64,000 nucleotides of DNA from an uncultured Pseudomonadales bacterium (GTDB taxonomy: Bacteria; Patescibacteriota; Microgenomatia; UBA1400; MFAQ01): the NCBI GenBank assembly GCA_964487665.1, contig CAZARR010000004.1, positions 816-64,815 of the forward strand. The letters run 5' to 3'. Below are positions 8,841 to 64,000 of the stretch, piece by piece. Within the stretch, counting starts at the first letter, position 1. Each line of letters begins with the position of its first letter. The notes beneath the pieces were generated by a model. The model searched no databases. It saw only the letters and a program-made list of their open reading frames with translations, and was not told the origin of the DNA. Made by a program: the position numbers and the translations under genes.

Positions 8841-10479
8841 CGGTGGAAATTATTTTGAACATAGTTTGCCCACCTAGTGATTTTACTTCAGAAAGCACTT
8901 TGGTGCCGTATGTTTCTTCTGTGGTTGTAATTAAGAGGGTGTTCTTGCGCATCATGTCGGAAGTAATATTTATTTGCCTGAACTCAAATTTGCCAAAGCT
9001 TCTTACTGTGCTGAATCCAAACTTATCTCTGGGGGTAAGTTTAATTTCGGTTTGAATAACTTTAGGAGAATATTTTAAGAAAAAGGCAATAATTATATAA
9101 GGTTGATCGTACTTATCAGAAATAACAATATGATCGTATTTCCGGCTATTAGTTTTCAAGTAATCGGCAACTTGGTCAAAACCATATTCCCATGCGTTAG
9201 GAACTTCACGCGGATATCGGTAGAAATAGGAATATAAAAAATTCCCGGTTTGATATATCAGAATGATCGAAAAAAAGGTGATTGCAAACAGCCGAAGATT
9301 TGTTTTTAGAGGTTGAACCAGCTTACCAAATACGTCCACACCGCCCAAAGCAATAATCAAACTTAGCGGTATGATCATGTTCTGCGATCGAAGTGCATGG
9401 GGTGATTGAAACGTAAGCGAGGCCGCGATCGGGGCTATTAATAACCAGATTAAAATAAGCCAAGATGAGGGATTGTTTAAACGCACTAGACTAATAAGTC
9501 CGGTTAACAAAAGTGGCGCGAGAATTAAATAAAGTTGAGCTTGACCAGGAATGTGATTTCGTGAAATGTCATCTCCTTCAACAAATAGAAATCTGGGAGA
9601 ATAGTGAGAATAATAATTCTGGATAAATCTAGAGGGGTAAGTAATGTATTTACTATGGACCAATTTGGGTAATATTGGTTGGGAGTGAAGACGTCTTAAC
9701 TCGAGTGCTTCCCAAAGCGGCCCAGAATCAGCAAATATGGAAACACCGTTAAAGCGGGATCTACCCTCTATTGACGTCATTTGCTTGATAAGGGGAATGG
9801 TGACAAGAAGAAATATTAATCCCGCTAAGATAAAATTTCGTAGATCAGAACGGTGACGGACATTTGATAATATTTCCGATTTATAAAAAACTAAAAGGGA
9901 CAAACCCATTAGGGGGGCAATAACTCGAAGAGAGTGGTAAGAATATAAACCGGCAGAAAGTGCCAATGCAGATATTACAAAGAACTTGGAACGCTTTAGA
10001 CCATAGAGAAATGTCAGAATAGAAAGGGTGAGGAAAAAGGTCGAAATGTTTACCTCCCACGCACCCCTAGAAAAATGAATATGCCAGGGTGAGATTGCCA
10101 AAACAAGAGCACTAAATAAGCCGATTTTAGGTTTAAACTGAGGAAATAAATGATTAGCGAGTAGATATACCAACCATATGGTAGCAATACCAAGCAGTGC
10201 TGATGGTAGCCTGATGGCAAACACATTTAAGCCAAAAATTTTGATAAATGGAATCGATATATAAACATAAAGTGGTGGTTTGTAGTCGTTAAATGATTTG
10301 AAGGTTAGGGGCCAACTGGTTCCAAACTCATCCTTACTGGTTTGAAGAAGTGAATATGAGTTGTATCCCAAAGCGGCTTCGTCACTATTGAGACCGGAGG
10401 GGTAATTACCCAACTGGAATAAACGAATCGATGATGCGACAACTAGTATAAGAGCTAGTAAAATTTTTTTATAGCGCAT
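8827..10479 (-). CDS. GT39/PMT-ArnT-like GT-C glycosyltransferase (paralog 1)
   Basis: LFQLGNYPSGLNSDEAALGYNSYSLLQTSKDEFGTSWPL is the PMT_2/ArnT-type N-terminal loop with a DE motif. 550 aa with 12+ TM helices and a C-terminal periplasmic domain. Confidence 0.6.
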   Translation of the reverse strand: MRYKKILLALILVVASSIRLFQLGNYPSGLNSDEAALGYNSYSLLQTSKDEFGTSWPLTFKSFNDYKPPLYVYISIPFIKIFGLNVFAIRLPSALLGIATIWLVYLLANHLFPQFKPKIGLFSALVLAISPWHIHFSRGAWEVNISTFFLTLSILTFLYGLKRSKFFVISALALSAGLYSYHSLRVIAPLMGLSLLVFYKSEILSNVRHRSDLRNFILAGLIFLLVTIPLIKQMTSIEGRSRFNGVSIFADSGPLWEALELRRLHSQPILPKLVHSKYITYPSRFIQNYYSHYSPRFLFVEGDDISRNHIPGQAQLYLILAPLLLTGLISLVRLNNPSSWLILIWLLIAPIAASLTFQSPHALRSQNMIIPLSLIIALGGVDVFGKLVQPLKTNLRLFAITFFSIILIYQTGNFLYSYFYRYPREVPNAWEYGFDQVADYLKTNSRKYDHIVISDKYDQPYIIIAFFLKYSPKVIQTEIKLTPRDKFGFSTVRSFGKFEFRQINITSDMMRKNTLLITTTEETYGTKVLSEVKSLGGQTMFKIISTDDQE

Positions 10480-11440
10480 TACTAAGTTGATTAATAAAAC
10501 CTAGACCGAGGTATACAAACTTGGAGTCCAAAACTCTATATAGATGAACGAAGTAAAGATCTAAACTTAGGATGTTTAGAATAATTACGAGTGTACAAAT
10601 TACGATAAATAAGGCGAGTGACTTTTTGAAGATTGATACCGCACCGATACTAATTAGAATTGATATTGGCAATATCATTGAAAAAACCTGAGCGGCCGGA
10701 AACTGGCAGGGTATTAGTAGGGCAGAGATTGGAGCAAGAAAGAAAATTAACAAATAATTAAACAGGTTATTTCTTATCAGGTAGAACGAGCCAATAAGGC
10801 CGATAAACAATAATGACAGGTCTGAGTAATTTAACAAACCGACCTTCAATACCCTATCACTGGTAGCCAGAGTTCGGCCAGTAAAGGTAAGAAATTGAGG
10901 AGAGAAGAAAAAGAGATATCTATCCCCCAGTTGGGGTGATATACCAAAAATTATTAAGCAAAAGATAATTGACAAAGTTAACAAAAACATTCTCTTGTGA
11001 TCTAGTCTAATAAATAGCAGGCTGACGAAGAATAATATAAAAGGTGAAGAGGGTAGGTAAACCAGGGCTGAAATGATGACGAGAGGAATAGAAAGTAAAT
11101 AATTGCGAAAGCGGTCGTATAGATAAAAAGAGATTATCAATAGGGTCAGCTGTAAGCTGGGGGGGAAGGCGTCCTTTGAGAGGGCAACATGCCAGGGGTT
11201 AAAAGAAATGAACGAAGTAACGACGAGGGAAAACAGTTTTTGAGTTGACTTTGAATACCCAAGTTCCATTCTTTGGACAAGTTGATAAAAAACAAAAATA
11301 CCAATTGTGGCCACAAGGGCTGATGGAAAATAGACCTGCAACTGGCTGATGGTAAAAGACGGAATACCGGAGGAATAATTTATTGGCCAAATCCTAATGA
11401 TGAAGGCTAACAGAAGTAAGGGGAATAGAAGGATATGCAT
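10469..11440 (-). CDS. Polytopic membrane protein, possibly a Wzy-like polymerase or ligase
   Basis: 323 aa with about 9 TM helices and no soluble domain. Its context between GT-C genes supports the guess, but no motif was recognised. Confidence 0.35.
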   Translation of the reverse strand: MHILLFPLLLLAFIIRIWPINYSSGIPSFTISQLQVYFPSALVATIGIFVFYQLVQRMELGYSKSTQKLFSLVVTSFISFNPWHVALSKDAFPPSLQLTLLIISFYLYDRFRNYLLSIPLVIISALVYLPSSPFILFFVSLLFIRLDHKRMFLLTLSIIFCLIIFGISPQLGDRYLFFFSPQFLTFTGRTLATSDRVLKVGLLNYSDLSLLFIGLIGSFYLIRNNLFNYLLIFFLAPISALLIPCQFPAAQVFSMILPISILISIGAVSIFKKSLALFIVICTLVIILNILSLDLYFVHLYRVLDSKFVYLGLGFINQLSNAL

Positions 11441-32498: not shown

Positions 32499-33409
32499 TT
32501 GATCTTTCGTGTCAACTTTAGTAATGCCCGAACAATTTTTTTTGGGTTTTGTTGTATGAGCATGGTGTAGTACCAGTAATTAAATTCATTAATTTTTCTT
32601 TTTAGTGGTTTTTTTATCAACCGTTGCACCTCGATTTCTTTGTGTGCGGGGAACGATTGTTTTTGCCATACCTTTAGATAGACCAAAAAGACTGAAAATG
32701 CCTGTAGAGTGGCAAGAACCAAACCATGCAGGCCATCCTTGTAACCCTCGCCAGCAAAATAACGGCTAAGAAATTCGCTCACTGGTCTTGTGAAAGCATC
32801 GATGGGATCAAACTGATACTTTTGTTCAATTAGTTCGAGTGCCTGGACCTCACTATAGCGAAGTGAACGAGATATGTATTGCTCAACTGAAGTGTAGTGG
32901 TTATGCTTGATAGCGAATTTTTCCTCTTCGGGTAAGTTTAAACCCCTTCCTTGGGTGATAGGTATCGAGTGAATGGTATTTTGCCATTCAACAAAGTTTT
33001 TTTTAAAAAATCTGATATTGTAGTCGGGCCACCAACGCGAGTGTTTGATCCAATTACCAAAAATAATGTTTTGCCGAGGAAGACGAACAAAATCGGCTTG
33101 ATCCTCATTAACAATTTGGCGTAATTTTGCAGCCAGATTTTTTGGAATGGTTTCATCTGGATCGACTACAAGAATCCATTCGTACTTGGCTTTTTTGATG
33201 GCAAAGTTTCGTGCTGGTTCGACGAAATTTAGTGGTTCATGCAAGTAGACCGAATCAGTATAGCGATAAGCGATATCACGGCTTTTATCTGTCGAGTGCA
33301 TATCTACAACAACAATTTCGTCTACAAAAGAAATACTCTGTAGGCACGATTCTAATAATTCGGCCTCATTTAGGGTGTTAACCACCGCTGAGATTTTCTT
33401 ATTGTTCAT
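32489..33409 (-). CDS. Glycosyltransferase family 2
   Basis: ISAVVNTLNEAELLESCLQSI...IVVVDMHSTDKS...LVVDPDE; 306 aa. Confidence 0.75.
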   Translation of the reverse strand: MNNKKISAVVNTLNEAELLESCLQSISFVDEIVVVDMHSTDKSRDIAYRYTDSVYLHEPLNFVEPARNFAIKKAKYEWILVVDPDETIPKNLAAKLRQIVNEDQADFVRLPRQNIIFGNWIKHSRWWPDYNIRFFKKNFVEWQNTIHSIPITQGRGLNLPEEEKFAIKHNHYTSVEQYISRSLRYSEVQALELIEQKYQFDPIDAFTRPVSEFLSRYFAGEGYKDGLHGLVLATLQAFSVFLVYLKVWQKQSFPAHKEIEVQRLIKKPLKRKINEFNYWYYTMLIQQNPKKIVRALLKLTRKIKCQ

Positions 33410-36400
33410 GACAGTTAAATTTATAGATGTTTATACCTTGGTAGTCAAAGATATTGTCGAGGCAAATGTCACGGTAATTGACAGATAATTTGAGATGGTG
33501 AGGTAAATATACATAGCTTATGTTGTTGGTTGCGAGAAATTGGAGCATCCAAGTAGTATCCAAGGTGTTAAAAAAGCGTTGAATTTGCTTTAATCGAAGT
33601 GAATAATCGTAACCTGTTATGTCTAAATTAATAGTGTCTGCTAAATACTCTGGTTGCCCCGAAAATGCTGAGATGTATCCGGTTGATGAATATGCGTATA
33701 GTGGTTTTGGTGACGGGGGATCGGAAATAATTGAGCGGAGGAAACTATGGGGTGGTGATATGACAATCCCCCTTGGCTGGTTCTGAAGCATCTGCAGAGC
33801 TCTAAGTTCGCTATAGCTTATTCGTGAGGCGGATAGGTTGGTGAGATAGTCCTTGAGCGTACCGATTGTCGTAGGTGAGATAAGGGTGACCACAATTAGC
33901 ACAACGACGAACCGACGAAGACGACTGGGGTGTTGGAGCCACGAGGCGATGCTAGCTACGGCGAAAAGGCTAAGAAAAAATTGTGCATAGTAAAAGAACT
34001 GAATAGTGTTCCATGGGTTGGATTTTTGTACAAGTATGAGGGGGGTAATAATACCCGCTAAAACAATAATCGAGGTTAGGTTTTTGGTTGGATAGTTCTC
34101 TTTGCTAAGTGAAAACTGGATAAAACCAACTATTCTTGCACCCAGATTACCCAAGACAAATACTGTCAGCGCAAAGATGTTTATTATGGTTAGTTTTATC
34201 AGATCGCCATTAATTTCGTATGCTTGCCAAGCAGTGACTAGTTTTTGCCAGTTCAGATGGTCTTGAGCCGCAAACATACTTTTGTAAAACCAAAAAGGGT
34301 GGAAAATAAATGGTGAACTTGCTTGAGTAAGTAATGGAAACACTAGTAACAAACCAACAATGAAGACACCAATAAAAAGTTTGTAATTTTTTTGTAATAG
34401 TAGGGCAAGTGCTAATAGTAAAAAACTATAAAACTTAATTTGGGCAAGCAAACCCCCGAGCAGAATTAATACGAGAGTTCGTCTGGAGGTGAGTGGTTGC
34501 ACTTTGCTTCGCTCTAGTAAGATAAGAAATATCAAGATAAAGACAATGGATAATGCAAAAGGGGGGTTTAGCAGAATGGATATTGATTGATTAGACCAAA
34601 AAACTGATTCTCCTGAAAACACCGAACGTCCTGATATTAAAGCTGGGATAAAGCCCAGTGATCCTGTTAAGAAACAGCCAATAATGCTTAGAGTAATGGC
34701 TTGGTCGGAATAATTCCACAAGCGGAGGAGCTTGATTAAAAGAATAATTATCAGGGTAGTTGTGGTTATCGGGATTATTCGAAAGTATAAATCCAAGGGT
34801 TGGATGTGGGAAAAGCGGCTAATAATAGCAAGAAGGTAATCGAATCCCAAGTGATAACTTTGCAATAGGTGACCTGAAATCATCGGGTTAAGAAAGTTGG
34901 TTAGGGATTGCCGAAATGAGGAAATTAGCGAAAGGTGAAAGATGGCATCGTGCCCATTGGGACCCCAGAAACCCATTCCAAACACATACAGCTGGCCACT
35001 CCTAAACATTGTAAGTAGAACCAAAAACTCAGTAACAATACCTGTGGCGAATACTAACATTGAGGAAAAAGGGTTTTTTCGAAACTGATATGCGATAGAT
35101 AGGATAGCAAGTGCGATTAGGATGGTTACAACAATGGTGTTTTTATTGGTGTTGGCGTATGGAAGTTGGGGTCGAATTTGCCAAACAGTACCATGTTTTG
35201 TTTTGACTGTTTTAACATCTGGTAATTTGACCTGGGGCACTTGAAGATTAAGAAGTTCTATTTCTTGCGGTTTTAGAATAATTTGTTTTTGTTGATCAGC
35301 TAAAGTCACTACCCAACTATTTTCTAAGGTTTTGAATTCTGTGATACCAAATCCAAGTGATATGACGGAACTGGGATATTTGACAGAGTCAATGGCTGCA
35401 TAGTTTTCGGCTAGAAGTTGTTGCGAATAATTCGGAGATAAATAATTATCCTCGGCCTCCTTTTGATTAAAGATCCGTAAATCAATAATTTGGGTATCGT
35501 TTGGTGTCGATCGTAGACCGATTCGATAAAATGAATTTTGATACCAAATTAACTCGCCATTTTGGTTACCTGTGACATCGGGGGAGCGATACATAAACGA
35601 CGGTGAAGATTCTGGGTAAAAGGAACGGAACCAATGACCGAAATTTGAAAGTGATATTGGGGTGAGCTCGTACTCTTTGCTTTTTTCACTGATAAGTTGG
35701 TAGGTGTTTATGATTTCTTGGTGGTAGTGGTTTGGAGATAAGCTATTATCTAAACCAACGATAATTTGGGAAAACTCATTATATGAATGGTCGCTGTATA
35801 TTTTTAACAGTCTATCTAAATATCTAGTATCGAGACCAGAACTAAGATAATCGTTTGCCTGAAGAGAGTAGCCATTGTCTTGGTAATTTGTATAGAAGTT
35901 AAATGGATCGCGCACAGCCCATTTGACAATCGGAAGTGGCAACCTGTTTTTACTTGAGGATGCCGGTATCAGAGTGTTTGTTTGGGATGGGTAATAGGGA
36001 CTGGCCAAGTAGGAACCCCAAAGACGGTAGTCACTGCCTAAAAATTGTTCGTCATGGACAGCGGCAGCAGTCACGGCGTAGTTATCGGTAAGGTATTTAA
36101 GGGAAAAACTATCAATGTACCAAGCGCCAACTGTTTGCGGGAAAAAACCAAAACGTTGGTAAAATTGATTCATATATGAATCAATTAGTTTTATTCGGTC
36201 GGCCTGATCATAATCGGCAAGCGATATTGACCTTGGTTGCTTGAGAAATTCTCCCGGGGGAAATTTTACAGTCGCAAGGGACGAAAGATTTGGGGTAATC
36301 TCGAGATAGGCCCCCACTGACTGGGACGAGTCTGAGGAAATTATTTTTTTGAAAAAGCTTGAAATTGCTTGATCGGAAATGGCGTCATAACGGAGTAGCC

Positions 36401-36608
36401 ATGTGATTGGAAGGGCTGACGGCGTTGATTCCTGATATTGTAACCTGGGCAGGTCAAGGGGGGTGTGTGTTTTTTCTTGACCCCAGCCTTCCCAGCCACT
36501 AACAGGGTTAACAATAGAAACAAAAGTTTGTCTTTCGAAAGATCTGACCGGAAAAAATACACCTGATAGTAAAAACATGACGATGAAGAGTGGCACAATC
36601 TTATGCAC
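33399..36608 (-). CDS. Large fusion protein: N-terminal extracytoplasmic domain (~500 aa) plus C-terminal 'GHD' family polytopic membrane domain
   Basis: 1069 aa. It has an N-terminal signal/TM segment. Its C-half motifs FWGPNGHDAIFHLSLISSF...NPMISGHLL.SYHLGFD...LDLYFRIIPI and LLNPPF are homologous to 16798..18798. Confidence 0.5.
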   Translation of the reverse strand: MHKIVPLFIVMFLLSGVFFPVRSFERQTFVSIVNPVSGWEGWGQEKTHTPLDLPRLQYQESTPSALPITWLLRYDAISDQAISSFFKKIISSDSSQSVGAYLEITPNLSSLATVKFPPGEFLKQPRSISLADYDQADRIKLIDSYMNQFYQRFGFFPQTVGAWYIDSFSLKYLTDNYAVTAAAVHDEQFLGSDYRLWGSYLASPYYPSQTNTLIPASSSKNRLPLPIVKWAVRDPFNFYTNYQDNGYSLQANDYLSSGLDTRYLDRLLKIYSDHSYNEFSQIIVGLDNSLSPNHYHQEIINTYQLISEKSKEYELTPISLSNFGHWFRSFYPESSPSFMYRSPDVTGNQNGELIWYQNSFYRIGLRSTPNDTQIIDLRIFNQKEAEDNYLSPNYSQQLLAENYAAIDSVKYPSSVISLGFGITEFKTLENSWVVTLADQQKQIILKPQEIELLNLQVPQVKLPDVKTVKTKHGTVWQIRPQLPYANTNKNTIVVTILIALAILSIAYQFRKNPFSSMLVFATGIVTEFLVLLTMFRSGQLYVFGMGFWGPNGHDAIFHLSLISSFRQSLTNFLNPMISGHLLQSYHLGFDYLLAIISRFSHIQPLDLYFRIIPITTTTLIIILLIKLLRLWNYSDQAITLSIIGCFLTGSLGFIPALISGRSVFSGESVFWSNQSISILLNPPFALSIVFILIFLILLERSKVQPLTSRRTLVLILLGGLLAQIKFYSFLLLALALLLQKNYKLFIGVFIVGLLLVFPLLTQASSPFIFHPFWFYKSMFAAQDHLNWQKLVTAWQAYEINGDLIKLTIINIFALTVFVLGNLGARIVGFIQFSLSKENYPTKNLTSIIVLAGIITPLILVQKSNPWNTIQFFYYAQFFLSLFAVASIASWLQHPSRLRRFVVVLIVVTLISPTTIGTLKDYLTNLSASRISYSELRALQMLQNQPRGIVISPPHSFLRSIISDPPSPKPLYAYSSTGYISAFSGQPEYLADTINLDITGYDYSLRLKQIQRFFNTLDTTWMLQFLATNNISYVYLPHHLKLSVNYRDICLDNIFDYQGINIYKFNCHEQ

Positions 36609-45323: not shown

Positions 45324-46313
45324 TTATAACTTGTTTTGCCTTTTGAGTTGCTCGATGCAGGCAACAAACCTGTCTTCCAAATGGTGCATACTTCCCCGAA
45401 ATAAGAAAGAGGCTGAGGCGGCGTGGCCACCTCCACCAAAAATATGGGCCACCTGAGATACGTCAACAGACGGATCCCGGCTCCTAAGAGATACCTTGAT
45501 GTACTCGGGGTCTTTTTCGACCATAATTGCCCCAAACTTGGTGTTTTGAATTTTTCCGGCAAATTTGTTAGCTATTATTCCAGTACCCGGAGACAGGCCA
45601 ATCTTAAGGTAATCTGGGTAGGTAAATTTCATCCAAGCATAATCACCAGAAGGTGACAATTTGAGCGATTGGAGACAAACACCCCAGGCTAAATAATCTT
45701 TTTGAGTAAAGTTTTTTTCTAATTGAGTCTGGCAGAAATTATAATTTGCGCCAGATTTAATCAGTTTGGCCGAAATTTGAAGGGTTGTGGCTGTAGTGTT
45801 TGTGTTGGCAAATGTACTGGTGTCAGAAATTATTCCTGAGAGCAAACAAGTGGCGATGTCTGAGGATAGATGAATATCAAGATTGGGGAGTAGGCGTGCG
45901 ATCATTTCGCAGGTGGAGGAATAATTTGGATCGACCCAACTGAAGTTTGATCTAATCTTGCTGTCGGGATGATGATCAATGTTAATAAGATGATTTTTAT
46001 CCAATTTCGGTGTGGTGCTACGAGAAACTAAATTCCAATTGGCAGTGTCCAAACTGAGGTAGCATCGATACGGATACGAGAGGGCTGTTTGAAGAGAAAT
46101 GGTTTCGATTGAATCTGCCCAAGGTATAAAAGTCATGCCATGAGGAATTGTGTCCTCACAAAATACTTGGACGGTTTTGCCAATCGATTCAAGGGCAATT
46201 TTTAATGCCAAGGCAGAGCCGATCGAGTCCGGATCGGGACCGAGGTGTACGTGGCAAAGAAAGGAATCTGTGGTATGAATTAATTTAATAATTGAATTTG
46301 GAGGAGTTGTCAT
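45324..46313 (-). CDS. DHH-family phosphoesterase (NrnA-like nanoRNase/pAp phosphatase)
   Basis: CHVHLGPDPDSIGSALAL (DHH motif I), LINIDHHPD (the DHH motif) and the GGGHAASASF DHHA1 glycine motif. The start is at the internal ATG 46313, giving an ATGA overlap with the upstream stop; the track's N-terminal extension is discarded. Confidence 0.7.
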   Translation of the reverse strand: MTTPPNSIIKLIHTTDSFLCHVHLGPDPDSIGSALALKIALESIGKTVQVFCEDTIPHGMTFIPWADSIETISLQTALSYPYRCYLSLDTANWNLVSRSTTPKLDKNHLINIDHHPDSKIRSNFSWVDPNYSSTCEMIARLLPNLDIHLSSDIATCLLSGIISDTSTFANTNTTATTLQISAKLIKSGANYNFCQTQLEKNFTQKDYLAWGVCLQSLKLSPSGDYAWMKFTYPDYLKIGLSPGTGIIANKFAGKIQNTKFGAIMVEKDPEYIKVSLRSRDPSVDVSQVAHIFGGGGHAASASFLFRGSMHHLEDRFVACIEQLKRQNKL

Positions 46314-47788
46314 TGTGAATGTATAAGTCGGTAGATGGAAATGTAATCGATTTGCCATTTCTCTACTACCTTCGCCGGTCCAAAAACTGCAATTTGCCAT
46401 TGGGAATTTCCCTCTGGTTGGCAGGTGTCACCGTCTTCGCACACAACAAATAGTTGGTCCGTAATACCATTCTCACCTCTGATTAATTTGGCTTTTTCAT
46501 TCTCGAAAAAATAACGGTACGACTCGTCGTAATTCTGTTTGGCTATTAGGCCGAAGTTAAAAGGGCGATCGTTTGATTTGTCTCTGATAAGTTCGGTAAC
46601 GGCCCTGGTCCGCCAAAGCAACCGGTTTGGCGACTGAAATAATGGGTTGTTAGCAATGTTGATAATAGTCAAGCTAAATAACCCCAGACCGCCAATAAGT
46701 TTTAGAAATAGCCTGGATTTTCTAATAAAAAAGCTTACGGATATTCCAATTAGTAGGAAATATGCAGGGTAGCTCATTCCAAAGTAATGCGAGTAGATCG
46801 GTTGATGATAGAACGCCAAACCAAAAATAGGAGCTAAACTCCAGATGTATAGAATCGAATATTGTAACTGATGTCTATGGCGAAAAACGTGCGCAATGGT
46901 GATAAGAAACAGAATTACAAGAATTGCTGGGTAAATTGTTAGTGGCCTGTAAAAAAGATAAACTGTAAGTTTTTCTAACATCTGCGCTAGATGTTGAGGT
47001 GAGGGTATTGCAAAGTTGGATTGATCTTTGACAGAAAAAAATGTGCTAAGACTATGCAGGTTGAGGAAGTTATGTTTGATATCATAAAGTAACAGAGGTA
47101 TTTGAAATACAAAAAAGACTAGTAAAGCGCTGATGGTGTGATCAAAAAGTTTGTTTTTGGAATTTTTAGACAGTATTAGTTCTCGTACCCAGATAAATAA
47201 GAACAGTGGTAGTAAAAATACGGCCAAGTAATGTAACTGAATAGCTAAGCCAAAAAGTGCAGCCGATATCAGCAAGTATACTTTTCTGGAGGATTTTGCG
47301 TATTTGTAAATAAACCAGGTCACCAGTAACGAGGCTAGAGGTAACGGGTTAGGATTCCAAGAAAAGGTAGACGTTTTTATCGTCAGTGGTGAGGTGGCGT
47401 AAAGAAATGCACCAATAAGTGCCGCCATTTGGCCAAACCATACTCTTCCTATTAGCCAAATTAGGAATACAGTAGCAACTGAAAGCAAAGCAACGATAAT
47501 AGCTGGGCCAGAAGGATCTGATGAAATAAATAGTGATGGAGCGATAAGGTAGTAATAGAATGGTCCAAGATAAGCATTGCCCACACTTGTTTGCGGTCCA
47601 ATGAATACTAGGTTTCCTTTTAATAGGTCGCGAACAACCCTCATATCCCTGCCTTGATCGCCTAAAAAGATTAGGTAGTCGTTGATGCGATACAAACGCA
47701 AGAAGGCGGAAATAATTACCACAAAAGCTATCAGAAAAAGTTCCCGTTTATTTGATCTGACCCAGGCGGTTATTTTAGCTTGCGCCAT
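46310..47788 (-). CDS. Polytopic membrane protein, family B paralog
   Basis: IFLGDQGRDMRVVRDLLKGNLVFIGPQTSVGNAYLGPFYYYLI; 492 aa. It is immediately downstream of a DPM1-like GT2. Confidence 0.5.
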   Translation of the reverse strand: MAQAKITAWVRSNKRELFLIAFVVIISAFLRLYRINDYLIFLGDQGRDMRVVRDLLKGNLVFIGPQTSVGNAYLGPFYYYLIAPSLFISSDPSGPAIIVALLSVATVFLIWLIGRVWFGQMAALIGAFLYATSPLTIKTSTFSWNPNPLPLASLLVTWFIYKYAKSSRKVYLLISAALFGLAIQLHYLAVFLLPLFLFIWVRELILSKNSKNKLFDHTISALLVFFVFQIPLLLYDIKHNFLNLHSLSTFFSVKDQSNFAIPSPQHLAQMLEKLTVYLFYRPLTIYPAILVILFLITIAHVFRHRHQLQYSILYIWSLAPIFGLAFYHQPIYSHYFGMSYPAYFLLIGISVSFFIRKSRLFLKLIGGLGLFSLTIINIANNPLFQSPNRLLWRTRAVTELIRDKSNDRPFNFGLIAKQNYDESYRYFFENEKAKLIRGENGITDQLFVVCEDGDTCQPEGNSQWQIAVFGPAKVVEKWQIDYISIYRLIHSQ

Positions 47789-50908: not shown

Positions 50909-51577
50909 ATGAAGATTGATGTTTTAACCGCGTTCCCAAAAATGTTTCAGGGACCATTTGATGAAAGTATTATTGCCAGAGCAGTTAAACAAGAATATCT
51001 AGATTTAAACATCTATGATTTACGAGATTGGAGTTCTGACAACCATCGAAGTGTTGATGATTCGCCTTTTGGTGGTGGGGCGGGTATGGTGATGCGGGTG
51101 GATGTAATCGATCGGGCAGTAGAAGACCTAAAAAGTAAACACCGCCAAAAGGCCAGGGTAATTCTTTTGGATACTAAAGGTGAGATTTATCGTCAAAATA
51201 CCGCGAAGACATATGCCACAGCTGAGTACTTGATATTAATTGCTGGTCATTATGAGGGAGTGGATCAGCGGGTACATGAATATATTGCTGATGAGGTAGT
51301 TTCGATCGGTGAGTTTGTATTGACGGGGGGTGAGCTTCCTGCGATGGTTCTGATTGATAGTATAGTCAGACTAATTCCGGGGGTTCTAGGAAATAGCGAG
51401 TCGTTGACCGAAGAGTCGTATAACCAGGAAGGAATGGTAGAATATCCGCAATTCACACGTCCTGCAGAATACAAGGGTTGGAAAGTACCTGAAGTGTTAC
51501 TATCTGGTAACCATAAAGATATTAATAGGTGGAAAAAAGAATCTGGGTTATTCCTTGGGAATTCCAACGGGCATTAA
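50909..51577 (+). CDS. trmD: tRNA (guanine37-N1)-methyltransferase
   Basis: MKIDVLTAFPKMFQGPFDESIIARA...VDDSPFGGGAGMVMRVDVI...ILIAGHYEGVDQRV are canonical TrmD motifs; 222 aa. Confidence 0.85.
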   Translation: MKIDVLTAFPKMFQGPFDESIIARAVKQEYLDLNIYDLRDWSSDNHRSVDDSPFGGGAGMVMRVDVIDRAVEDLKSKHRQKARVILLDTKGEIYRQNTAKTYATAEYLILIAGHYEGVDQRVHEYIADEVVSIGEFVLTGGELPAMVLIDSIVRLIPGVLGNSESLTEESYNQEGMVEYPQFTRPAEYKGWKVPEVLLSGNHKDINRWKKESGLFLGNSNGH

Positions 51578-52306
51578 ATACACAGGCTCTTCCGACTGGG
51601 GTAACGATAGCAAGTCGTGAATTTTGGCGACATCAAAACTTGAGATGGCGACCGTACCAAGCCCTATTGACTCTGATTGGAGATAGATATTTTGCGCAAT
51701 GTGGCCAACTTCTAGATAAATATTTTTATCAAGTTCCGAAATTGGAAAAGAATCTTTGAGCTTATCTTTCTGGGCAGTAATAAGAAGCACAACTGGAGTC
51801 GATCGAAGAGAATTTTGATTGACGATCTCAAAAAGTTTGGTTTGAAAGTTGCCAGGTTGTAAAAGTTGGATCCGGTGTATGGGTTCGCGATCGCCGGCTA
51901 AATACCGATAAAGTCCCGGGTTGAGAGTCTCGACATTAAACACAAGTGCGTATAGAGTATTGGGGTAAATTGATTTTGCCGACGGGGCGGTGCGGCCTCC
52001 CCAGTTTGTCGTTACCCCCTGTCCGGCCCAAAGAAGTTGAGAAAGTTTTGATAATTGAAGAGTATCATTTTGGAACAATCTACGGCTTCGTCTCTGGTAT
52101 AGGGCTTTTTCTATGCTGTAGGATGAGTTTATCGCAGGTTTGGGAAGCGATATTGGTTCAATAACCTGTACTGTGTTTGTGTCGACTGGTTGGCTGCCTT
52201 TGGATGGAGATGGTTTGGGCTGTATTAGTAATCCCAGACCTAGGATAAAAAAAAAGGAAATAACTACATAAATGGGTGTAGTGATAGCTTTGGAAAACCC
52301 TGGCAT
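51548..52306 (-). CDS. Nitroreductase-family / SagB-type dehydrogenase domain protein, membrane-anchored
   Basis: An N-terminal TM helix, then SIEKALYQRRSRRLFQNDTLQLSKLSQLLWAGQGVT...GRTAPSAKSIYP, the nitroreductase/SagB fold signature. The start is taken at MPGFSK (52306). Confidence 0.5.
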   Translation of the reverse strand: MPGFSKAITTPIYVVISFFFILGLGLLIQPKPSPSKGSQPVDTNTVQVIEPISLPKPAINSSYSIEKALYQRRSRRLFQNDTLQLSKLSQLLWAGQGVTTNWGGRTAPSAKSIYPNTLYALVFNVETLNPGLYRYLAGDREPIHRIQLLQPGNFQTKLFEIVNQNSLRSTPVVLLITAQKDKLKDSFPISELDKNIYLEVGHIAQNIYLQSESIGLGTVAISSFDVAKIHDLLSLPQSEEPVYLMPVGIPKE

Positions 52307-52314
52307 ACCAGAGG

Positions 52315-53034
52315 CTAAATATAGGTTCGGATCTGGGCTTTTGAACGTTGATCTTTGAACCATTCGGTGAATTTGTCTTGCAGTTGTTGCTCTTTGAGAT
52401 TTGTCTTTATTTCTTCTTTGACATCCTCATATTTCTTATCTTTGAAGTACGAGGAGTAGTCTGTAAAGTACTTCTTAACTTCATCTTCCTTTGGCTCGAC
52501 ATTGGTAAAGAGTTTGACTTTTAGCTTGGCTTCGGTAACCATGGCCTTGAGCCGACTTAAAAAGTCTTTGTCTGTAAGTCCACTTTGGGAAAGGGCATTT
52601 TTTAGAGCCTCTTCACCACCCAAACGATCTACAATCTTTTTTCTTTCCTCATCTAGGTCGCTTTGCGCAATAGTGACATTGTTCTTTTTGGCTAAATCTG
52701 CAAGTAAGGCTGTGTCTACCATTTCCTGAAGGGTTGCCTGACCATAACGCTCTACCAACTTTTTGTTGAGTTCGAATCTGGTAATAGGCGTAGTGTTGAT
52801 TGAGCCAGCGATGATGTAACCCCGATATTTTTTGGCCAAATAATATGCACCGATACCTAAAAGGATAACTAGACCAACCGTAAAAGCTAAACGTAGGCCG
52901 GAGGTTTGTGGTTTCGAACGAGTTGGGGTTGGGTCAACGGCTGTGCTTTTTTCAAGAGATTCTAGAGAAGTTCGACCTGGTTTACGCTGGTTCGATCGTG
53001 GTTTGGTAATTGTAGCTTTGATTTTTGTTGCCAT
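52315..53034 (-). CDS. Membrane-anchored SurA-N-domain-like periplasmic chaperone (no PPIase domain)
   Basis: A low-complexity N-terminus, one TM helix, then the helical domain LNKKLVERYGQATLQEMVDTALLADLAKKNNVTIAQSDLDEERKKIV..., typical of the SurA_N/PpiD-like family. Confidence 0.45.
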   Translation of the reverse strand: MATKIKATITKPRSNQRKPGRTSLESLEKSTAVDPTPTRSKPQTSGLRLAFTVGLVILLGIGAYYLAKKYRGYIIAGSINTTPITRFELNKKLVERYGQATLQEMVDTALLADLAKKNNVTIAQSDLDEERKKIVDRLGGEEALKNALSQSGLTDKDFLSRLKAMVTEAKLKVKLFTNVEPKEDEVKKYFTDYSSYFKDKKYEDVKEEIKTNLKEQQLQDKFTEWFKDQRSKAQIRTYI

Positions 53035-53053: not shown

Positions 53054-54634
53054 TTATTGCAGTGATTTGATTAGGTAGGTTTTTTGTGGTTGGTAGCCAA
53101 GTTTGAAATAGTATTCCCTCGTACCAATGGCAGAAATAACAGCAATTTTATTGAAACCATTTTTCTTAGCAATTGTTTCTGCCACCGAGATTAATCTTTT
53201 GCCCAGACCTTGATGTTGGGCAAATCGTATATTTTTCTTGGAGATTGCAACGACCCGACCAAAAGTGTGAACTTCGCGAATTATGGCTGAGCTGTCTAAC
53301 TCTTTAAATATCAGGTTCTTCTTCGTTTCGGGTAAACGCATGCGGAGTAAGGAATAAAGTTGATCTTTATTTTCGAAACTGAGGAAATACTCGACCCCTC
53401 CGAGTGTGAGGATTTTGCGTGTGTGTAAGTCTGGAATTACTGAATAAAGCCTATCTCCAACTTCACGGCAGCGGATACAGGCACACTTTTGACCGTTTTT
53501 GGCTAACTCCATTTGGATTTGTTGCCGCATGTTCGAGATCTGAGTGCCCGCTACTAGCCACTTTTTGGAAATATCACGAACCAAGCGGTCGATACGAACC
53601 CAAGGGGGTGTAATTTTTTTTATTTTAGTTAGGACACGCTTAAGATCCTTGTCGGAGTATGGTTTAAATGAACCAGAATGAAATTCTTTTTCGAGGGCGG
53701 TTCCTGGTAGTATGGCGCAGGGGTAGATTTTTATGCTATCAGGTTTAAAACGTGGATCGGAATAAATTAAACGGGCCATGCTAACATCTTTTTGGGGGTT
53801 AGAACCTGGTAGGTTAGGCATAAAATGATAACAAACTTTGAAACCTGAGTCGCGTAGCCTTTGTGTGGCAGAGGCAATGGCTGAAAGATTATGCCCCCTT
53901 TTGATGCGTTGTAAGATTTTCTCGTCTGGGGCCTGGACGCCCAACTGAACTTTAGTGACCCCTAGGCGGCGAAGCAACCGGATCTCCTGATCACTAAGCC
54001 AGTCTGGACGGGTTTCAATACTAATACCAACTATCCTGATTGATGCATTTTGATTTAGCTTTTGCGCTTGGACTAGGTTTTTTGAAGAACATTGATTACA
54101 CGCGTCTACCATATCTTTAAAAAACTTAATCCTATATGCCTTTGGGTAAGCAGAGAATGTCCCACCAATAACAATCAATTCCACTTTTTGAAGTGAGTGA
54201 CCGGTTTGGCGAAGCTGTTCAAAACGCGAGTGTATTTGGGCTTTGGGGTCAAATTCTAATGATTTAGCCCTTTGCGCCGCAGGTTCGTCGGATAGATAGC
54301 TTTTGGGCATGCCTGATTCTAAAGGACAAAAGGTACACTGACCCGGACAGGCAAAAGGTTTTGTCATGACAGCAAGCGGAGTAACCCCAGACTGAGATCG
54401 AATTCGACGTGTTCTAAGAGAACTAAGCAGAAGGTCATTTGGGGGTATTCTATTTGTAGACGAAAGGTTTAGGTAGGCTTGTCTAATGTGAGAATTTTTG
54501 GGAACAAATTTTAGTTTGGTAGACCAAAGTAACCTATATTGGTCAATATTATTATGGTTAAGACGTGTAAAATCCTTTGAGATGAGATCCTGCAGCGCGA
54601 CAAGATCAGATGGTGTCCGGGTTGTGTATGACAA
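53054..54634 (-). CDS. elp3: Elp3-family protein: radical-SAM domain plus C-terminal GNAT acetyltransferase (putative tRNA U34 carboxymethylation enzyme)
   Basis: 526 aa. A CX3CX2C cluster (FACPGQCTFCP), the radical-SAM core (LIVIGGTFSA...ISIETRPD), and a C-terminal GNAT motif (RFAQHQGLGKRLISVAETIAKKNG). Both the architecture and length match Elp3. Confidence 0.75.
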   Translation of the reverse strand: MSYTTRTPSDLVALQDLISKDFTRLNHNNIDQYRLLWSTKLKFVPKNSHIRQAYLNLSSTNRIPPNDLLLSSLRTRRIRSQSGVTPLAVMTKPFACPGQCTFCPLESGMPKSYLSDEPAAQRAKSLEFDPKAQIHSRFEQLRQTGHSLQKVELIVIGGTFSAYPKAYRIKFFKDMVDACNQCSSKNLVQAQKLNQNASIRIVGISIETRPDWLSDQEIRLLRRLGVTKVQLGVQAPDEKILQRIKRGHNLSAIASATQRLRDSGFKVCYHFMPNLPGSNPQKDVSMARLIYSDPRFKPDSIKIYPCAILPGTALEKEFHSGSFKPYSDKDLKRVLTKIKKITPPWVRIDRLVRDISKKWLVAGTQISNMRQQIQMELAKNGQKCACIRCREVGDRLYSVIPDLHTRKILTLGGVEYFLSFENKDQLYSLLRMRLPETKKNLIFKELDSSAIIREVHTFGRVVAISKKNIRFAQHQGLGKRLISVAETIAKKNGFNKIAVISAIGTREYYFKLGYQPQKTYLIKSLQ

Positions 54635-55235
54635 GATAGGGACATATTTTAGCCGAACAAGAAATTTTGTGTGGCCAGAGTTGAGACCTTGGCTTGACTG
54701 CTTGAAGGATGGGGACTCGGTTCTTGACGTGGGGTGTGGAAACGGAAGGTTGTTAATGGGGATTAATAAAAGTGTTAGTTATGTTGGAATAGATTTTTCA
54801 AAGAGTTTACTTAACGAAGCCCATAAATTACACCCCAGCCACCGATTCGTTTACGGGGACATAAACGAGGAAGGGACGTGGAAAGCTTTGGGTAAATACA
54901 AGGCGACTTTTTGTGTGGCTGTTTTGCATCATGTATTCAACTTTACCGATCAGAAAGAAGTTGTAAGAAAGATGGTTAGCCACACTGACAAGGGTGGGTT
55001 TGTATATATAAGTGTCTGGAATTTGTGGAGTAAAAGACACTGGATAAACCATTTGAGGAGTATTTTTCTGAAATTTAGTCATTGGCGATTGGTTAATGTT
55101 CCTTTTAGAACTATAGATCGATTGTATTTTGCTTTTGACGAGGGGTATCTAAGACGGTTAACAGCGGATATTGGTGCGAAAAAAACAACAACTTTTTCTA
55201 GTGGTGGTAATTTGTGTGTGGTGCTAGATGTTTAG
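54582..55235 (+). CDS. Trm9/ALKBH8-type class I SAM methyltransferase (putative tRNA cm5U34 methyl-esterase)
   Basis: VVYDKIGTYFSRTRNFVWPELRPWL / VLDVGCGNGRLLMGINKSVSYVGIDFS / FCVAVLHHV / GGFVYISVWNLW / RLYFAFDEGYL / GGNLCVVLD align motif-by-motif with yeast Trm9 (VYNEIAPHFSQTRYKPWPIV / IDVGCGNGKYLGVN / ISIAVVHHW / GGQALIYCWALEQ / RYYHLYREGEL / RDNWWVVAQK). The first ATG is at 54582; the track ORF starts upstream at 54498. Confidence 0.65.
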   Translation: MRSCSATRSDGVRVVYDKIGTYFSRTRNFVWPELRPWLDCLKDGDSVLDVGCGNGRLLMGINKSVSYVGIDFSKSLLNEAHKLHPSHRFVYGDINEEGTWKALGKYKATFCVAVLHHVFNFTDQKEVVRKMVSHTDKGGFVYISVWNLWSKRHWINHLRSIFLKFSHWRLVNVPFRTIDRLYFAFDEGYLRRLTADIGAKKTTTFSSGGNLCVVLDV

Positions 55236-55534: not shown

Positions 55535-56503
55535 TTATTTTCTAATTAATTCCTCGAGCCAGGGAGTGTTTCCGTGTTTTCTTTTCCACCATGTATCTTC
55601 CCAAACATAATGCACTGCGAGTTGTTTATATATTCCGTATTTGTTGAAATGAGATAAAAGTTGGTCGACCGGGAGCGGATCGTGAGGATCACGGTCGAAA
55701 AAAATCTTTGAATAAATTTTCTGCTCCCAAGGAGAAATGTGATTAAAAAAGTCCCAATGATGAAAAACATCAAAAAGTATATACCAGACAGTTGCCGGCC
55801 CAACGCCGAAGAGATGAAGAAGCTGTTTTTGTTGCTCAGCTAGACTCAAGGTCCTGAGATTGATCTCGTCAATTAGACCGGCACGAAATTGATCGTCAAT
55901 TTTTTTAATTGATTTGGCTCGATATCCAACTTTTAACAAGCGGAGATCATTTTCGGAAACTGAATTAAGTTTACCCGGGCACCAGAAACACCATAGTACT
56001 TTACCATCGAACTCAAGCTTGTCTCCGAACTGTTCGATAAGAGTACGAAACATTTCAGCAGACCGCTTAACTGTGGCATTTTGGAGAGTAATGCCTATGA
56101 TCAAATAATCGTAAAGTGAGCTGGGGTGGCCAGGGCGCATACCACGCCATTTTGAAATTATTGGCTTTAGTACCGGATCATTTGCGAACAACTGATAAAA
56201 AGGATTCAGATCTAACTCTAAGTTGTATCTATATTTAATTTCGTCAATTAAAGTTTTGAGTGCTTTGATGGTAAGTTCTTTTGACGCATAAATCGAAATG
56301 GCAATTTTAGGATTATCAACAGTCCAAAGATTTTTAAATTTAATTCCTAGCGGTACTTTCCCCCAGCGCCACGTTTGCCAACGAACACCTGGTTCCCAAA
56401 GACTATCCCCGGTGGTGAAATGGTCAGGTTTGTGAAAAGTAGCATCAAAATTAAACGGGGATACTGGGGACAACGTGATGGTGTGAATGTGTTTAAGTTG
56501 CAT
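55535..56503 (-). CDS. HhH-GPD superfamily DNA glycosylase (AlkA/Ogg-like)
   Basis: 322 aa. A helix-hairpin-helix LLHLFGVGPATVWYILFDVF follows an AlkA-like N-terminal domain. Confidence 0.55.
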   Translation of the reverse strand: MQLKHIHTITLSPVSPFNFDATFHKPDHFTTGDSLWEPGVRWQTWRWGKVPLGIKFKNLWTVDNPKIAISIYASKELTIKALKTLIDEIKYRYNLELDLNPFYQLFANDPVLKPIISKWRGMRPGHPSSLYDYLIIGITLQNATVKRSAEMFRTLIEQFGDKLEFDGKVLWCFWCPGKLNSVSENDLRLLKVGYRAKSIKKIDDQFRAGLIDEINLRTLSLAEQQKQLLHLFGVGPATVWYILFDVFHHWDFFNHISPWEQKIYSKIFFDRDPHDPLPVDQLLSHFNKYGIYKQLAVHYVWEDTWWKRKHGNTPWLEELIRK

Positions 56504-63599: not shown

Positions 63600-63935
63600 C
63601 TAGGTTGCTCTAGGTTCGAGAAGACGCCTTGGCTTCGTGCTAGGGAGGAAAGTCCGGACAGCAAAAAGAAAGAGTGACCCGGGAAACGGGGTTTCTCTCG
63701 GAGTGATTCGAGGGACACGATAGGGCCACAGAGACGAATAAGGTGAAACGGTATTGATTGCAATGTCAATACGCCTTAACTAGGTAACTAGATAAGGTCG
63801 GTAACCCGCCTCGCTGCAACCTCTGACCTGAGTAGTTTGGGTTTCTTTTCCCAGCCTCTTGATTGGGGCCTACTCTAAAATTGAGGGCACAGATAGATGT
63901 CTTCTTTGAAACAGAATCCGGCTTACGAGACCTGG
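63600..63935 (+). ncRNA. rnpB: RNase P RNA (bacterial, type A-like)
   Basis: The universal motifs are present: GGAAAGTCCGGAC (P4 5' strand), AAGGTGAAACGGT (P10-P11 junction) and ACAGAATCCGGCTTAC (P4 3' strand). The 5' CTAGGTTCGAG and 3' GAGACCTGG can form P1. The ends are approximate and the 3' end may extend. Confidence 0.75.
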
Positions 63936-64000
63936 GGCAACAATCAACTAGACAATTTCTGGCTGTTTTTTGTCGAAGTTGTAGTGGAGGTGAGTATAGA

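Follow-up and report, generated by a model that had tools for sequence, protein, structure and literature searches.

The question raised by this locus is whether a bacterium can carry, as two adjacent genes, the wobble-uridine pathway known from eukaryotes and archaea. The DNA concerned, called the window in what follows, is a stretch of 64,000 nucleotides (positions 816 to 64,815 of contig CAZARR010000004.1, assembly GCA_964487665.1) that was deposited under the name of an uncultured Pseudomonadales bacterium and is placed in the Patescibacteriota by GTDB. Two divergently oriented genes in it encode a homolog of Elp3, the stand-alone radical S-adenosylmethionine (SAM)/lysine acetyltransferase (KAT) enzyme that carboxymethylates uridine 34 (U34) of tRNA, and a class I SAM-dependent methyltransferase that resembles Trm9. 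Both open reading frames (ORFs) are found where the initial annotation, made from the letters alone, had put them (Table 1). Judged by sequence, the pair probably constitutes a self-contained two-gene module of the archaeal/eukaryotic type that would make 5-carboxymethyluridine (cm5U34) and convert it into 5-methoxycarbonylmethyluridine (mcm5U34).

The modification of U34 in bacteria has been attributed to MnmE/MnmG, with bacterial Elp3 said to be confined to essentially one clade, Dehalococcoides (PMC7663514). The methyltransferases that depend on Trm112, among them Trm9, were reported to have no detectable homologs in bacteria (PMC5372719). A paper from 2026 mentions Elp3 in 'numerous bacteria' and names no partner for it. 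In the full-text literature, the coverage of which does not extend to Glatt et al. (2016), we found no description of a bacterial Elp3–Trm9 pair, in agreement with the initial annotation, which had regarded a linked Trm9 as undescribed in bacteria. The parts are in part annotated already; the Elp3–Trm9 module is not described in bacteria.

On sequence grounds, the ORF on the reverse strand is a bona fide full-length Elp3. Residues 37–525 align with positions 26–522 of the NCBIfam model TIGR01211 (ELP3) with a score of 484.3 bits, the cut-off being 350 bits. Matches in the PDB run to the last residue of the protein for Elp3 from Dehalococcoides mccartyi (DmcElp3; PDB entry 5l7j; E = 1.3e-112) and from Methanocaldococcus infernus (MinElp3; PDB entry 6iad; E = 1.5e-109), and the human/mouse and yeast Elp3 structures are matched with E-values of 1e-94 to 6e-86. 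The residues of the radical-SAM domain were read off an ungapped alignment to DmcElp3. The radical-SAM motif is C96-x3-C100-x2-C103, while K150 and K266 are the counterparts of K77 and K193 in DmcElp3 and have the identical numbering in MinElp3 (K150 and K266). The zinc site is formed by C384, C386 and C389 within the sequence K-C-A-C-I-R-C-R-E. The KAT domain contains the motifs R-E455-V-H, A-Q473-H-Q-G-L-G-K (acetyl-CoA) and R-E-Y508-Y, in which E455, Q473 and Y508 map to E386 and Y441 of DmcElp3 and to Q461 and Y517 of MinElp3. Binding or hydrolysis of acetyl-CoA requires K77, K193, E386 and Y441 in DmcElp3 and K150, K266, Q461 and Y517 in MinElp3 (PMC6367351). Pfam recognizes the KAT domain through a weak match to Acetyltransf_10 (0.0024). 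The full Elp3 architecture put forward in the initial annotation is thus borne out by the Fe–S, zinc and acetyl-CoA-pocket residues, and the features on which it had staked the assignment, namely Elp3-specific lysines and a tRNA-binding region, are present in the form of K150, K266 and a basic N-terminal extension.

This extension is conserved in relatives from about residue 12, and the alignment to TIGR01211 begins at model position 26. In MinElp3 residues 1–75 bind tRNA, and the equivalent region is missing from DmcElp3 (PMC6367351). By analogy with MinElp3, the N-terminus of the window Elp3 may bind tRNA as well. A substrate other than tRNA, with the pair serving protein acetylation or some other radical-SAM reaction, has to be weighed here. 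Historically, Elp3 has been described as a lysine acetyltransferase. The activity of bacterial Elp3 on tRNA is also weak in vitro (PMC7663514). Nevertheless, both DmcElp3 and MinElp3 bind tRNA and their hydrolysis of acetyl-CoA is set off specifically by U34 tRNAs (PMC6367351, PMC7663514), the window protein has an N-terminus of the basic, tRNA-binding type and its partner is homologous to a tRNA methyltransferase specific for U34. We consider a non-tRNA substrate to be highly improbable.

Pairwise identities between Elp3 proteins are 42–49% for the candidate phyla radiation (CPR) versus archaea, 40–45% for CPR versus DmcElp3 and 39–55% within the CPR. These values leave the origin of the bacterial protein undecided, and we draw no conclusion on horizontal transfer. 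As to nomenclature, the CPR proteins already go under the name Elp3 or 'elongator complex protein 3' in databases. The name given to TIGR01211 by the NCBI annotation pipeline PGAP, 'tRNA uridine(34) 5-carboxymethylaminomethyl modification ...', denotes the MnmE/MnmG-type 5-carboxymethylaminomethyl (cmnm5) group, as opposed to the cm5 group that is reported for Elp3.

The forward-strand partner is less readily named. Its matches in Pfam and NCBIfam are to generic class I families, UbiG and UbiE only (34 bits for UbiG, TIGR01983, with a cut-off of 103; 31.5 bits for MenG/UbiE, TIGR01934, with a cut-off of 158), and therefore sequence, profile and fold searches against the PDB were used. A single-sequence search of the entire PDB returns Trm9 from Yarrowia lipolytica (5cm2_Z; E = 5.8e-14) as the top match, followed by UbiG (1.3e-5). 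With a profile built from 37 members of the methyltransferase family (A1), the match to Yarrowia Trm9 improves to 2.5e-26 and extends across positions 26–222 of 223, while the second-best match (7e-16) is limited to the SAM-binding half. The AlphaFold2 model of the protein (pLDDT 91.3) has the same Trm9 chain as its best Foldseek match (2.2e-14, 27% identity, TM-score 0.78 when normalized by target length), with lower-ranked matches at 11–20% identity. Trm9 is thus best by sequence, profile and fold, as the initial annotation had proposed in naming the neighbour as Trm9/ALKBH8-type. It is favoured by about ten orders of magnitude over UbiG, UbiE and any other solved methyltransferase, and the NCBIfam scores lie far below their cut-offs, which speaks against the UbiE or generic alternative that the same annotation had named as its refutation.

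The active site agrees with this assignment. In yeast Trm9, function is lost or severely impaired on mutation of R29, D72, H116, W145, W168, R241, Y243 or N271 (Letoquart et al. 2015; PMC4678810). The equivalent residues in the window protein are R27, D71, H117, W146, F175, R180, Y182 and N210, so seven of these eight essential residues are identical and the remaining one is a replacement of W168 by F175. H115 of the yeast enzyme is also kept, as H116. Across 55 family members the essential positions are conserved in 52–55, the exceptions being W168 (Trp in 34, Phe in 15 and Tyr in six), Y243 (Tyr in 39 and Cys in eight) and H115 (His in 45). The Trm9-specific terminal motifs align too, comprising the N-terminal Y..I...FS.TR...WP, the R-x-Y motif and the Asn near the C-terminus. 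As far as can be judged from sequence and predicted fold, the methyltransferase is specifically Trm9-like. One family member, P0116, is labelled TRM9 by JGI; other public labels read 'class I SAM-dependent methyltransferase' or 'UbiE/UbiG-like'.

The next question is whether the two genes belong together. An alignment of the methyltransferase was scanned against one genome per species (GTDB), giving 468 confirmed relatives, the best 80 loci of which were analysed. By the names in their records nearly all of these loci are from Patescibacteria, with lineages that include Collier-, Woese-, Beckwith-, Peri-/Peregrini-, Gracili-, Abawaca-, Komeili-, Falkow-, Magasanik- and Nealsonbacteria, Parcubacteria and, with a single locus, Saccharibacteria. 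Elp3 was located by tblastn with the window Elp3. The flank is too short for a call at eight loci, and 72 are informative. Elp3 is divergent and directly adjacent to the methyltransferase at 42 loci, divergent at a distance of 0.7–4.7 kb at nine and on the same strand 4–9 kb upstream at six, and is missing from 15 loci although these offer 2.5 kb or more of upstream sequence. Elp3 therefore lies within 10 kb of the methyltransferase at 57 of the 72 informative loci, and is divergent at 51. By our own estimate, which assumes a genome of ∼1 Mb, a single-copy gene would be found within 10 kb at about 2% of loci by chance. When the neighbouring ORFs are clustered, no family but Elp3 exceeds 23 of the 80 loci, and individual inspection of seven contigs agrees with the linkage.

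Two side observations concern these loci. At many loci of the Parcubacteria/Peregrinibacteria type (L006, L010, L011 and about 22 others), the methyltransferase gene is found directly 3' of a RecQ-like helicase gene, at times with overlapping stop and start codons, and serine hydroxymethyltransferase (SHMT; GlyA) and FolD are encoded upstream; this may be an operon with a role in one-carbon or SAM supply or plain synteny. Elp3 is encoded on the same strand and farther upstream in L006 and L010, the latter also containing genes of the LigT-like and HD-domain types. Some 30 metagenome-assembled genomes (for example L013, L017, L020, L030 and L032) bear the titles 'uncultured Pseudomonadales' or 'Gammaproteobacteria'. 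Their loci have CPR-like contexts, with Elp3 45–55% and the methyltransferase 30–40% identical to those of the window, and we suspect that they are mislabelled.

The pair recurs in a second phylum. Metagenome contigs were scanned with the DmcElp3 sequence, and 80 loci were obtained. Identity to the query is 100% for L093, 92% for L094 and 63–68% for the others. Sixty of the loci are informative, with 1 kb or more of sequence upstream. When the ORFs are searched with profile A1, 44 of these 60 prove to encode a Trm9-like protein of full length (80–95 bits, profile positions ∼11–211), upstream of Elp3 and divergent from it. At the D. mccartyi locus itself (L093) the Trm9-like gene occupies 9271–9945 on the reverse strand and Elp3 9989–11368 on the forward strand. 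Among 45 methyltransferases of the Dehalococcoidia type, 44–45 retain each of the catalytic D, HH, W, W, R, Y and N. The only bacterial Elp3 to have been studied structurally, DmcElp3, thus also has an adjoining Trm9-like partner, and the Elp3–Trm9-like pair is a conserved module in both Patescibacteria and Dehalococcoidia. The pairing goes beyond chance, since it is seen in different species at 57 of the 72 informative loci and again in the second phylum. Elp3 is abundant in Patescibacteria and Dehalococcoidia, and its description in the initial annotation as sporadic in bacteria does not hold in the sense of mere sporadic occurrence. Beside the D. mccartyi pair (L093, 7092–9242) are genes for the epoxyqueuosine reductase QueH, another enzyme acting on position 34 of tRNA, a RimI-like GNAT protein and an ArsP-type permease fragment. 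A small CxxC...CxxC zinc-ribbon protein is also encoded near this pair, and its family recurs at 12 loci of the Dehalococcoidia type.

This distribution bears on the idea that the methyltransferase belongs to a generic class I type, acting on small molecules or resembling UbiE/UbiG, and stands next to Elp3 by accident, leaving Elp3 alone to make cm5U. Pfam, NCBIfam and the public annotations indeed offer nothing beyond generic or UbiE/UbiG-like names. However, the UbiG and UbiE scores given above are far from their cut-offs, Trm9 is the best match at full-length coverage in the sequence, profile and fold searches and the adjacency to Elp3 has been kept in two distant phyla. An accidental neighbour is already disfavoured, and we accord it very little weight.

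The 5' ends of the two genes require some care. TTG 54634 is the sole ATG, GTG or TTG codon upstream of the N-terminal region of Elp3 that is conserved in its homologs, which are typically 514–520 residues long, and alignments of homologs support ATG 54582 as the start of the methyltransferase. The coding ends then overlap by 53 nt; the divergent overlap proposed in the initial annotation is real, and its length of 52 nt needs a minor correction. Use of an alternative methyltransferase start, GTG 54624, would reduce the overlap to 11 nt. The closest relatives, L012, L021 and L027, share this divergent arrangement with overlap. In the NCBI gene call (P0121) Elp3 starts from M90 and has 437 residues, which must be a truncation because of the single available upstream start and the length of the homologs. 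A JGI call on a contig of the same species (P0001) gives a methyltransferase of 188 residues, beginning at a GTG that lies within the conserved helix at the N-terminus, and loses the conserved Y..I..FS.TR motif. The truncated public calls are likely to result from gene callers shunning a 53 nt divergent overlap and a TTG start. With such a shared 5' region the two genes might be co-regulated.

The proposed reaction has two steps. The stand-alone Elp3 would bind its tRNA with the help of the basic N-terminal extension, as orthology suggests. Its [4Fe–4S] cluster would cleave SAM to give a 5'-deoxyadenosyl radical, and an acetyl radical formed from the acetyl-CoA that the KAT domain binds would be added to C5 of U34, yielding cm5U34. 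The Trm9-like enzyme, by orthology and by the conservation of the mapped active site, would next use SAM to methyl-esterify the carboxyl group and so produce mcm5U34. In tRNAs for Lys, Glu and Gln a 2-thiolation by an enzyme encoded elsewhere may follow. The product, the tRNA targets, the co-transcriptional control and any activity without Trm112 are putative.

A number of points weigh against the pair being an mcm5U34 module. Eukaryotic and archaeal Trm9 require Trm112. A Trm112/YcaR-like gene was found neither in the window nor near the pair in 160 loci, in searches that are insensitive for proteins of ∼60 residues: tblastn with E. coli YcaR gave only E > 0.4, clustering of ORFs revealed no conserved small ORF beside the pair and the recurrent zinc-ribbon ORF of the Dehalococcoidia does not match the Pfam family Trm112p (PF03966). 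The position of W168 is a Phe in the window protein, and that of Y243, a Tyr in the window protein, is a Cys in eight of the 55 family members. The Trm9 call relies on one solved Trm9 structure and residue mapping, there being no Trm9-specific model in Pfam or NCBIfam, and was built with Yarrowia Trm9 and E. coli CmoM as named references rather than from a phylogeny of many eukaryotic and archaeal Trm9 proteins. A promoter scan of the shared 5' region (54200–55000) gave no sigma-70-like motif. MnmE, MnmG and MnmA are absent among the window ORFs that were scanned, a set that leaves out those at ∼39.7–44.6 kb and several short ones at 57.7–63.8 kb; besides the pair, TrmD and the RNase P RNA are the only tRNA-related items in the scanned part, and nothing was found in the literature on MnmE/MnmG in Patescibacteria or Dehalococcoidia-type lineages. 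Finally, biochemical evidence for cm5U or mcm5U is lacking for any bacterium. Direct evidence of xcm5U is missing even for Dehalococcoides, and DmcElp3 is weakly active in vitro (PMC7663514).

Some of these points could also mean that the pair does act on U34 and leads to an end product other than mcm5U, either because a different intermediate or position is methylated or because cm5U is converted onwards (to an ncm5U-like, hydroxylated or other form). Deletion of trm9 in Haloferax volcanii does not lead to an accumulation of cm5U, which points to extra conversions in prokaryotes (PMC6144793). Positions E148 and Q149 differ, being Trp and Ser in the window protein, and to these are added the Phe at W168 and the failure to see a Trm112 near the pair. 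On the other hand, both bacterial clades keep the equivalents of R29, H115/H116, R241, Y243 and N271, the proposed contacts of the uracil ring and the cm5U carboxylate, and a different end product appears unlikely to us. The undetected Trm112 and the weak activity of DmcElp3 would also suit a relic of horizontal transfer with little or no activity, for example for want of its Trm112 activator, the actual modification then being made by MnmE/MnmG. In contrast, the catalytic residues of both genes are intact across hundreds of species with reduced genomes and the architecture of the pair is maintained, and therefore purifying selection is indicated. A relic is hardly credible on this evidence, and the two-step conversion of U34 to mcm5U34 remains our preferred reading of the pair.

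If so, a pathway that was thought to be all but missing in bacteria probably occurs widely among them. That Patescibacteria/CPR and Dehalococcoidia decode their split codon boxes with mcm5(s2)U34 made by Elp3 and Trm9, in replacement of the MnmE/MnmG-made cmnm5U or 5-methylaminomethyluridine (mnm5U), is a more far-reaching proposal that we put forward as tentative and somewhat doubtful. The occurrence of the pair across many CPR lineages and beside the crystallized D. mccartyi Elp3 runs contrary to the picture in reviews. It provides bacterial Elp3 with a downstream partner and predicts wobble chemistry of the mcm5U type in bacteria, a prediction open to direct test, as cultures exist of D. 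mccartyi and of a few Patescibacteria. The pair also offers a natural test of Trm9 action without Trm112, and has a bearing on whether U34 modification of the Elp3 type predates the split of the domains. Public annotation gives the methyltransferase a generic name and has both genes truncated in the window organism. Both proteins are orthologs of characterized families in a known pathway; what is unexpected is their phyletic distribution and the conserved two-gene architecture.

Table 1. Features of the window, in window coordinates.
Feature	Position	Strand	Evidence or remarks
Elp3 homolog, 526 aa, TTG start (stand-alone radical-SAM/KAT tRNA U34 carboxymethylase)	53054-54634	-	
Elp3, basic N-terminal extension, aa 1-77	54404-54634	-	12 K+R versus 5 D+E, net +7, pI 10.6
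Elp3, Radical SAM domain, aa 95-284	53783-54352	-	Pfam PF04055, 2.7e-19
Elp3, Radical_SAM_C domain, aa 298-378	53501-53743	-	Pfam PF16199, 2e-19
Elp3, zinc site and KAT (GNAT) domain, ~aa 384-526	53057-53467	-	Alignment to DmcElp3 and MinElp3
Overlap of divergent 5' coding ends, 53 nt	54582-54634	.	Sequence; starts from homolog alignments
Trm9-like class I SAM methyltransferase, 217 aa	54582-55235	+	ORF open from 54498; start inferred as ATG 54582
DUF3850 (PUA/ASCH-like) protein, 86 aa	55232-55492	-	Pfam, 2.4e-17
322-aa protein, possibly a divergent DNA glycosylase	55535-56503	-	Sub-threshold: TIGR00588, 51 bits versus 398; Pfam HhH-GPD, 0.003
SagB-type nitroreductase-fold dehydrogenase	51548-52363	-	TIGR03605, 78.6 versus cut-off 78.4
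TrmD	50909-51577		Pfam, 9e-54
Intact DHH-family ORF	45324-46400		
1069-aa protein	33399-36608		No Pfam match
Class A bacterial RNase P RNA	63608-63941	+	Rfam RF00010, 113 bits, full-length model

The window has a G+C content of about 40% and is bacterial, because it contains the trmD gene and a class A bacterial RNase P RNA. The nearest relatives of its genes are in Patescibacteria of the Microgenomates type (Collierbacteria and Woesebacteria). No tRNA genes are present in the 64 kb. A spurious ORF of 83 residues overlaps the RNase P RNA on the opposite strand.

The methyltransferase gene overlaps its convergent neighbour, the DUF3850 gene, by four nucleotides at the 3' ends. In the initial annotation this ASCH/PUA-like protein was considered as possibly RNA-associated and was mentioned together with the pair. 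It is a DUF3850 protein, and nothing ties it to the pair: the protein is 100% conserved in L001, a contig of the same species, while tblastn and phmmer gave no homolog near the pair in the 80 other loci, and it is rejected as a third component. Synteny of the flanking genes with the pair, those for DUF3850 and the Ogg-like glycosylase included, is likewise confined to L001. The precomputed annotation of L001, which covers 44.7–64 kb of the window, has no Pfam match for the 322-residue Ogg-like ORF. On the Elp3 side, the SagB-type ORF has an N-terminal membrane segment and overlaps trmD as well as a PrsA/SurA-like gene, with no obvious partner genes for a ribosomally synthesized and post-translationally modified peptide (RiPP) nearby.

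Most of the remaining window (1–50874) is a near-continuous cluster of ∼50 kb for cell-surface glycosylation, in which the ORFs at 39.7–44.6 kb lie outside the Pfam scans. At least seven paralogous PMT_2/PMT (ArnT-like) membrane glycosyltransferases are encoded there, six of which come from the Pfam scans and one from L001, together with two PTPS_related membrane proteins, a YfhO-like protein, a Polysacc_synt_3 flippase and many GT2 and GT4 enzymes.

The module can finally be set against the known systems. E. coli CmoM (SmtA), which methyl-esterifies cmo5U34 to mcmo5U34, is also a class I methyltransferase acting on the carboxyl group of a U34 side chain, and has an N-terminal F/Y-D-x-I-A-x-x-F-S motif in common with the window enzyme. 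However, profile A1 scores only 31.6 bits with CmoM compared with 94.6 bits for Trm9, and the hhalign alignment covers just residues 13–148 of the 217 in the window protein, that is, the N-terminal two thirds. CmoM moreover lacks the HH, VW and R-Y-Y...N motifs and is not linked to Elp3. Similarity of the window protein to CmoM over the full length is not seen.

The bacterial MnmE/MnmG route, which together with MnmC or MnmM leads to cmnm5U or mnm5U, has the same target and the same role, an xm5U34 modification in tRNAs that read split codon boxes. Its enzymes, its cofactors (GTP, FAD, methylenetetrahydrofolate and glycine) and its side chain are unrelated to those of Elp3 and Trm9. A further reference is DmcElp3 (PDB entry 5L7J), which is 41% identical to the window Elp3 and has the same domains and residues, save for the N-terminal extension, which it lacks. 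Both loci have a divergent Trm9-like neighbour, and the two methyltransferases are ∼26% identical.

By sequence, the pair would combine the same two catalytic activities as eukaryotic Elongator with Trm9–Trm112 or ALKBH8–TRMT112, which make mcm5U34 and its 2-thiolated form mcm5s2U34. The window Elp3 shares the radical-SAM and KAT architecture and the key residues; the methyltransferase has the fold of Trm9 together with the active site defined by mutation. Elp1, Elp2 and Elp4–6 are not expected in a bacterium because prokaryotic Elp3 is a stand-alone enzyme. In contrast to the eukaryotic route, no Trm112 was found near the pair, the methyltransferase is without the AlkB and RRM domains of ALKBH8 and the genes are physically paired with overlapping 5' ends, for which there is no eukaryotic counterpart.

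In archaea, mcm5U has been demonstrated in H. volcanii, where it is produced by Trm9–Trm112 (HVO_1032; PMC6144793), and in no bacterium, whereas the host of the window is a bacterium. The stand-alone MinElp3 is 42% identical to the window Elp3 and has an equally long basic N-terminus, and in Sulfolobus solfataricus the genes for Elp3 and Trm9 are clustered (PMC6144793), as they are in the window.

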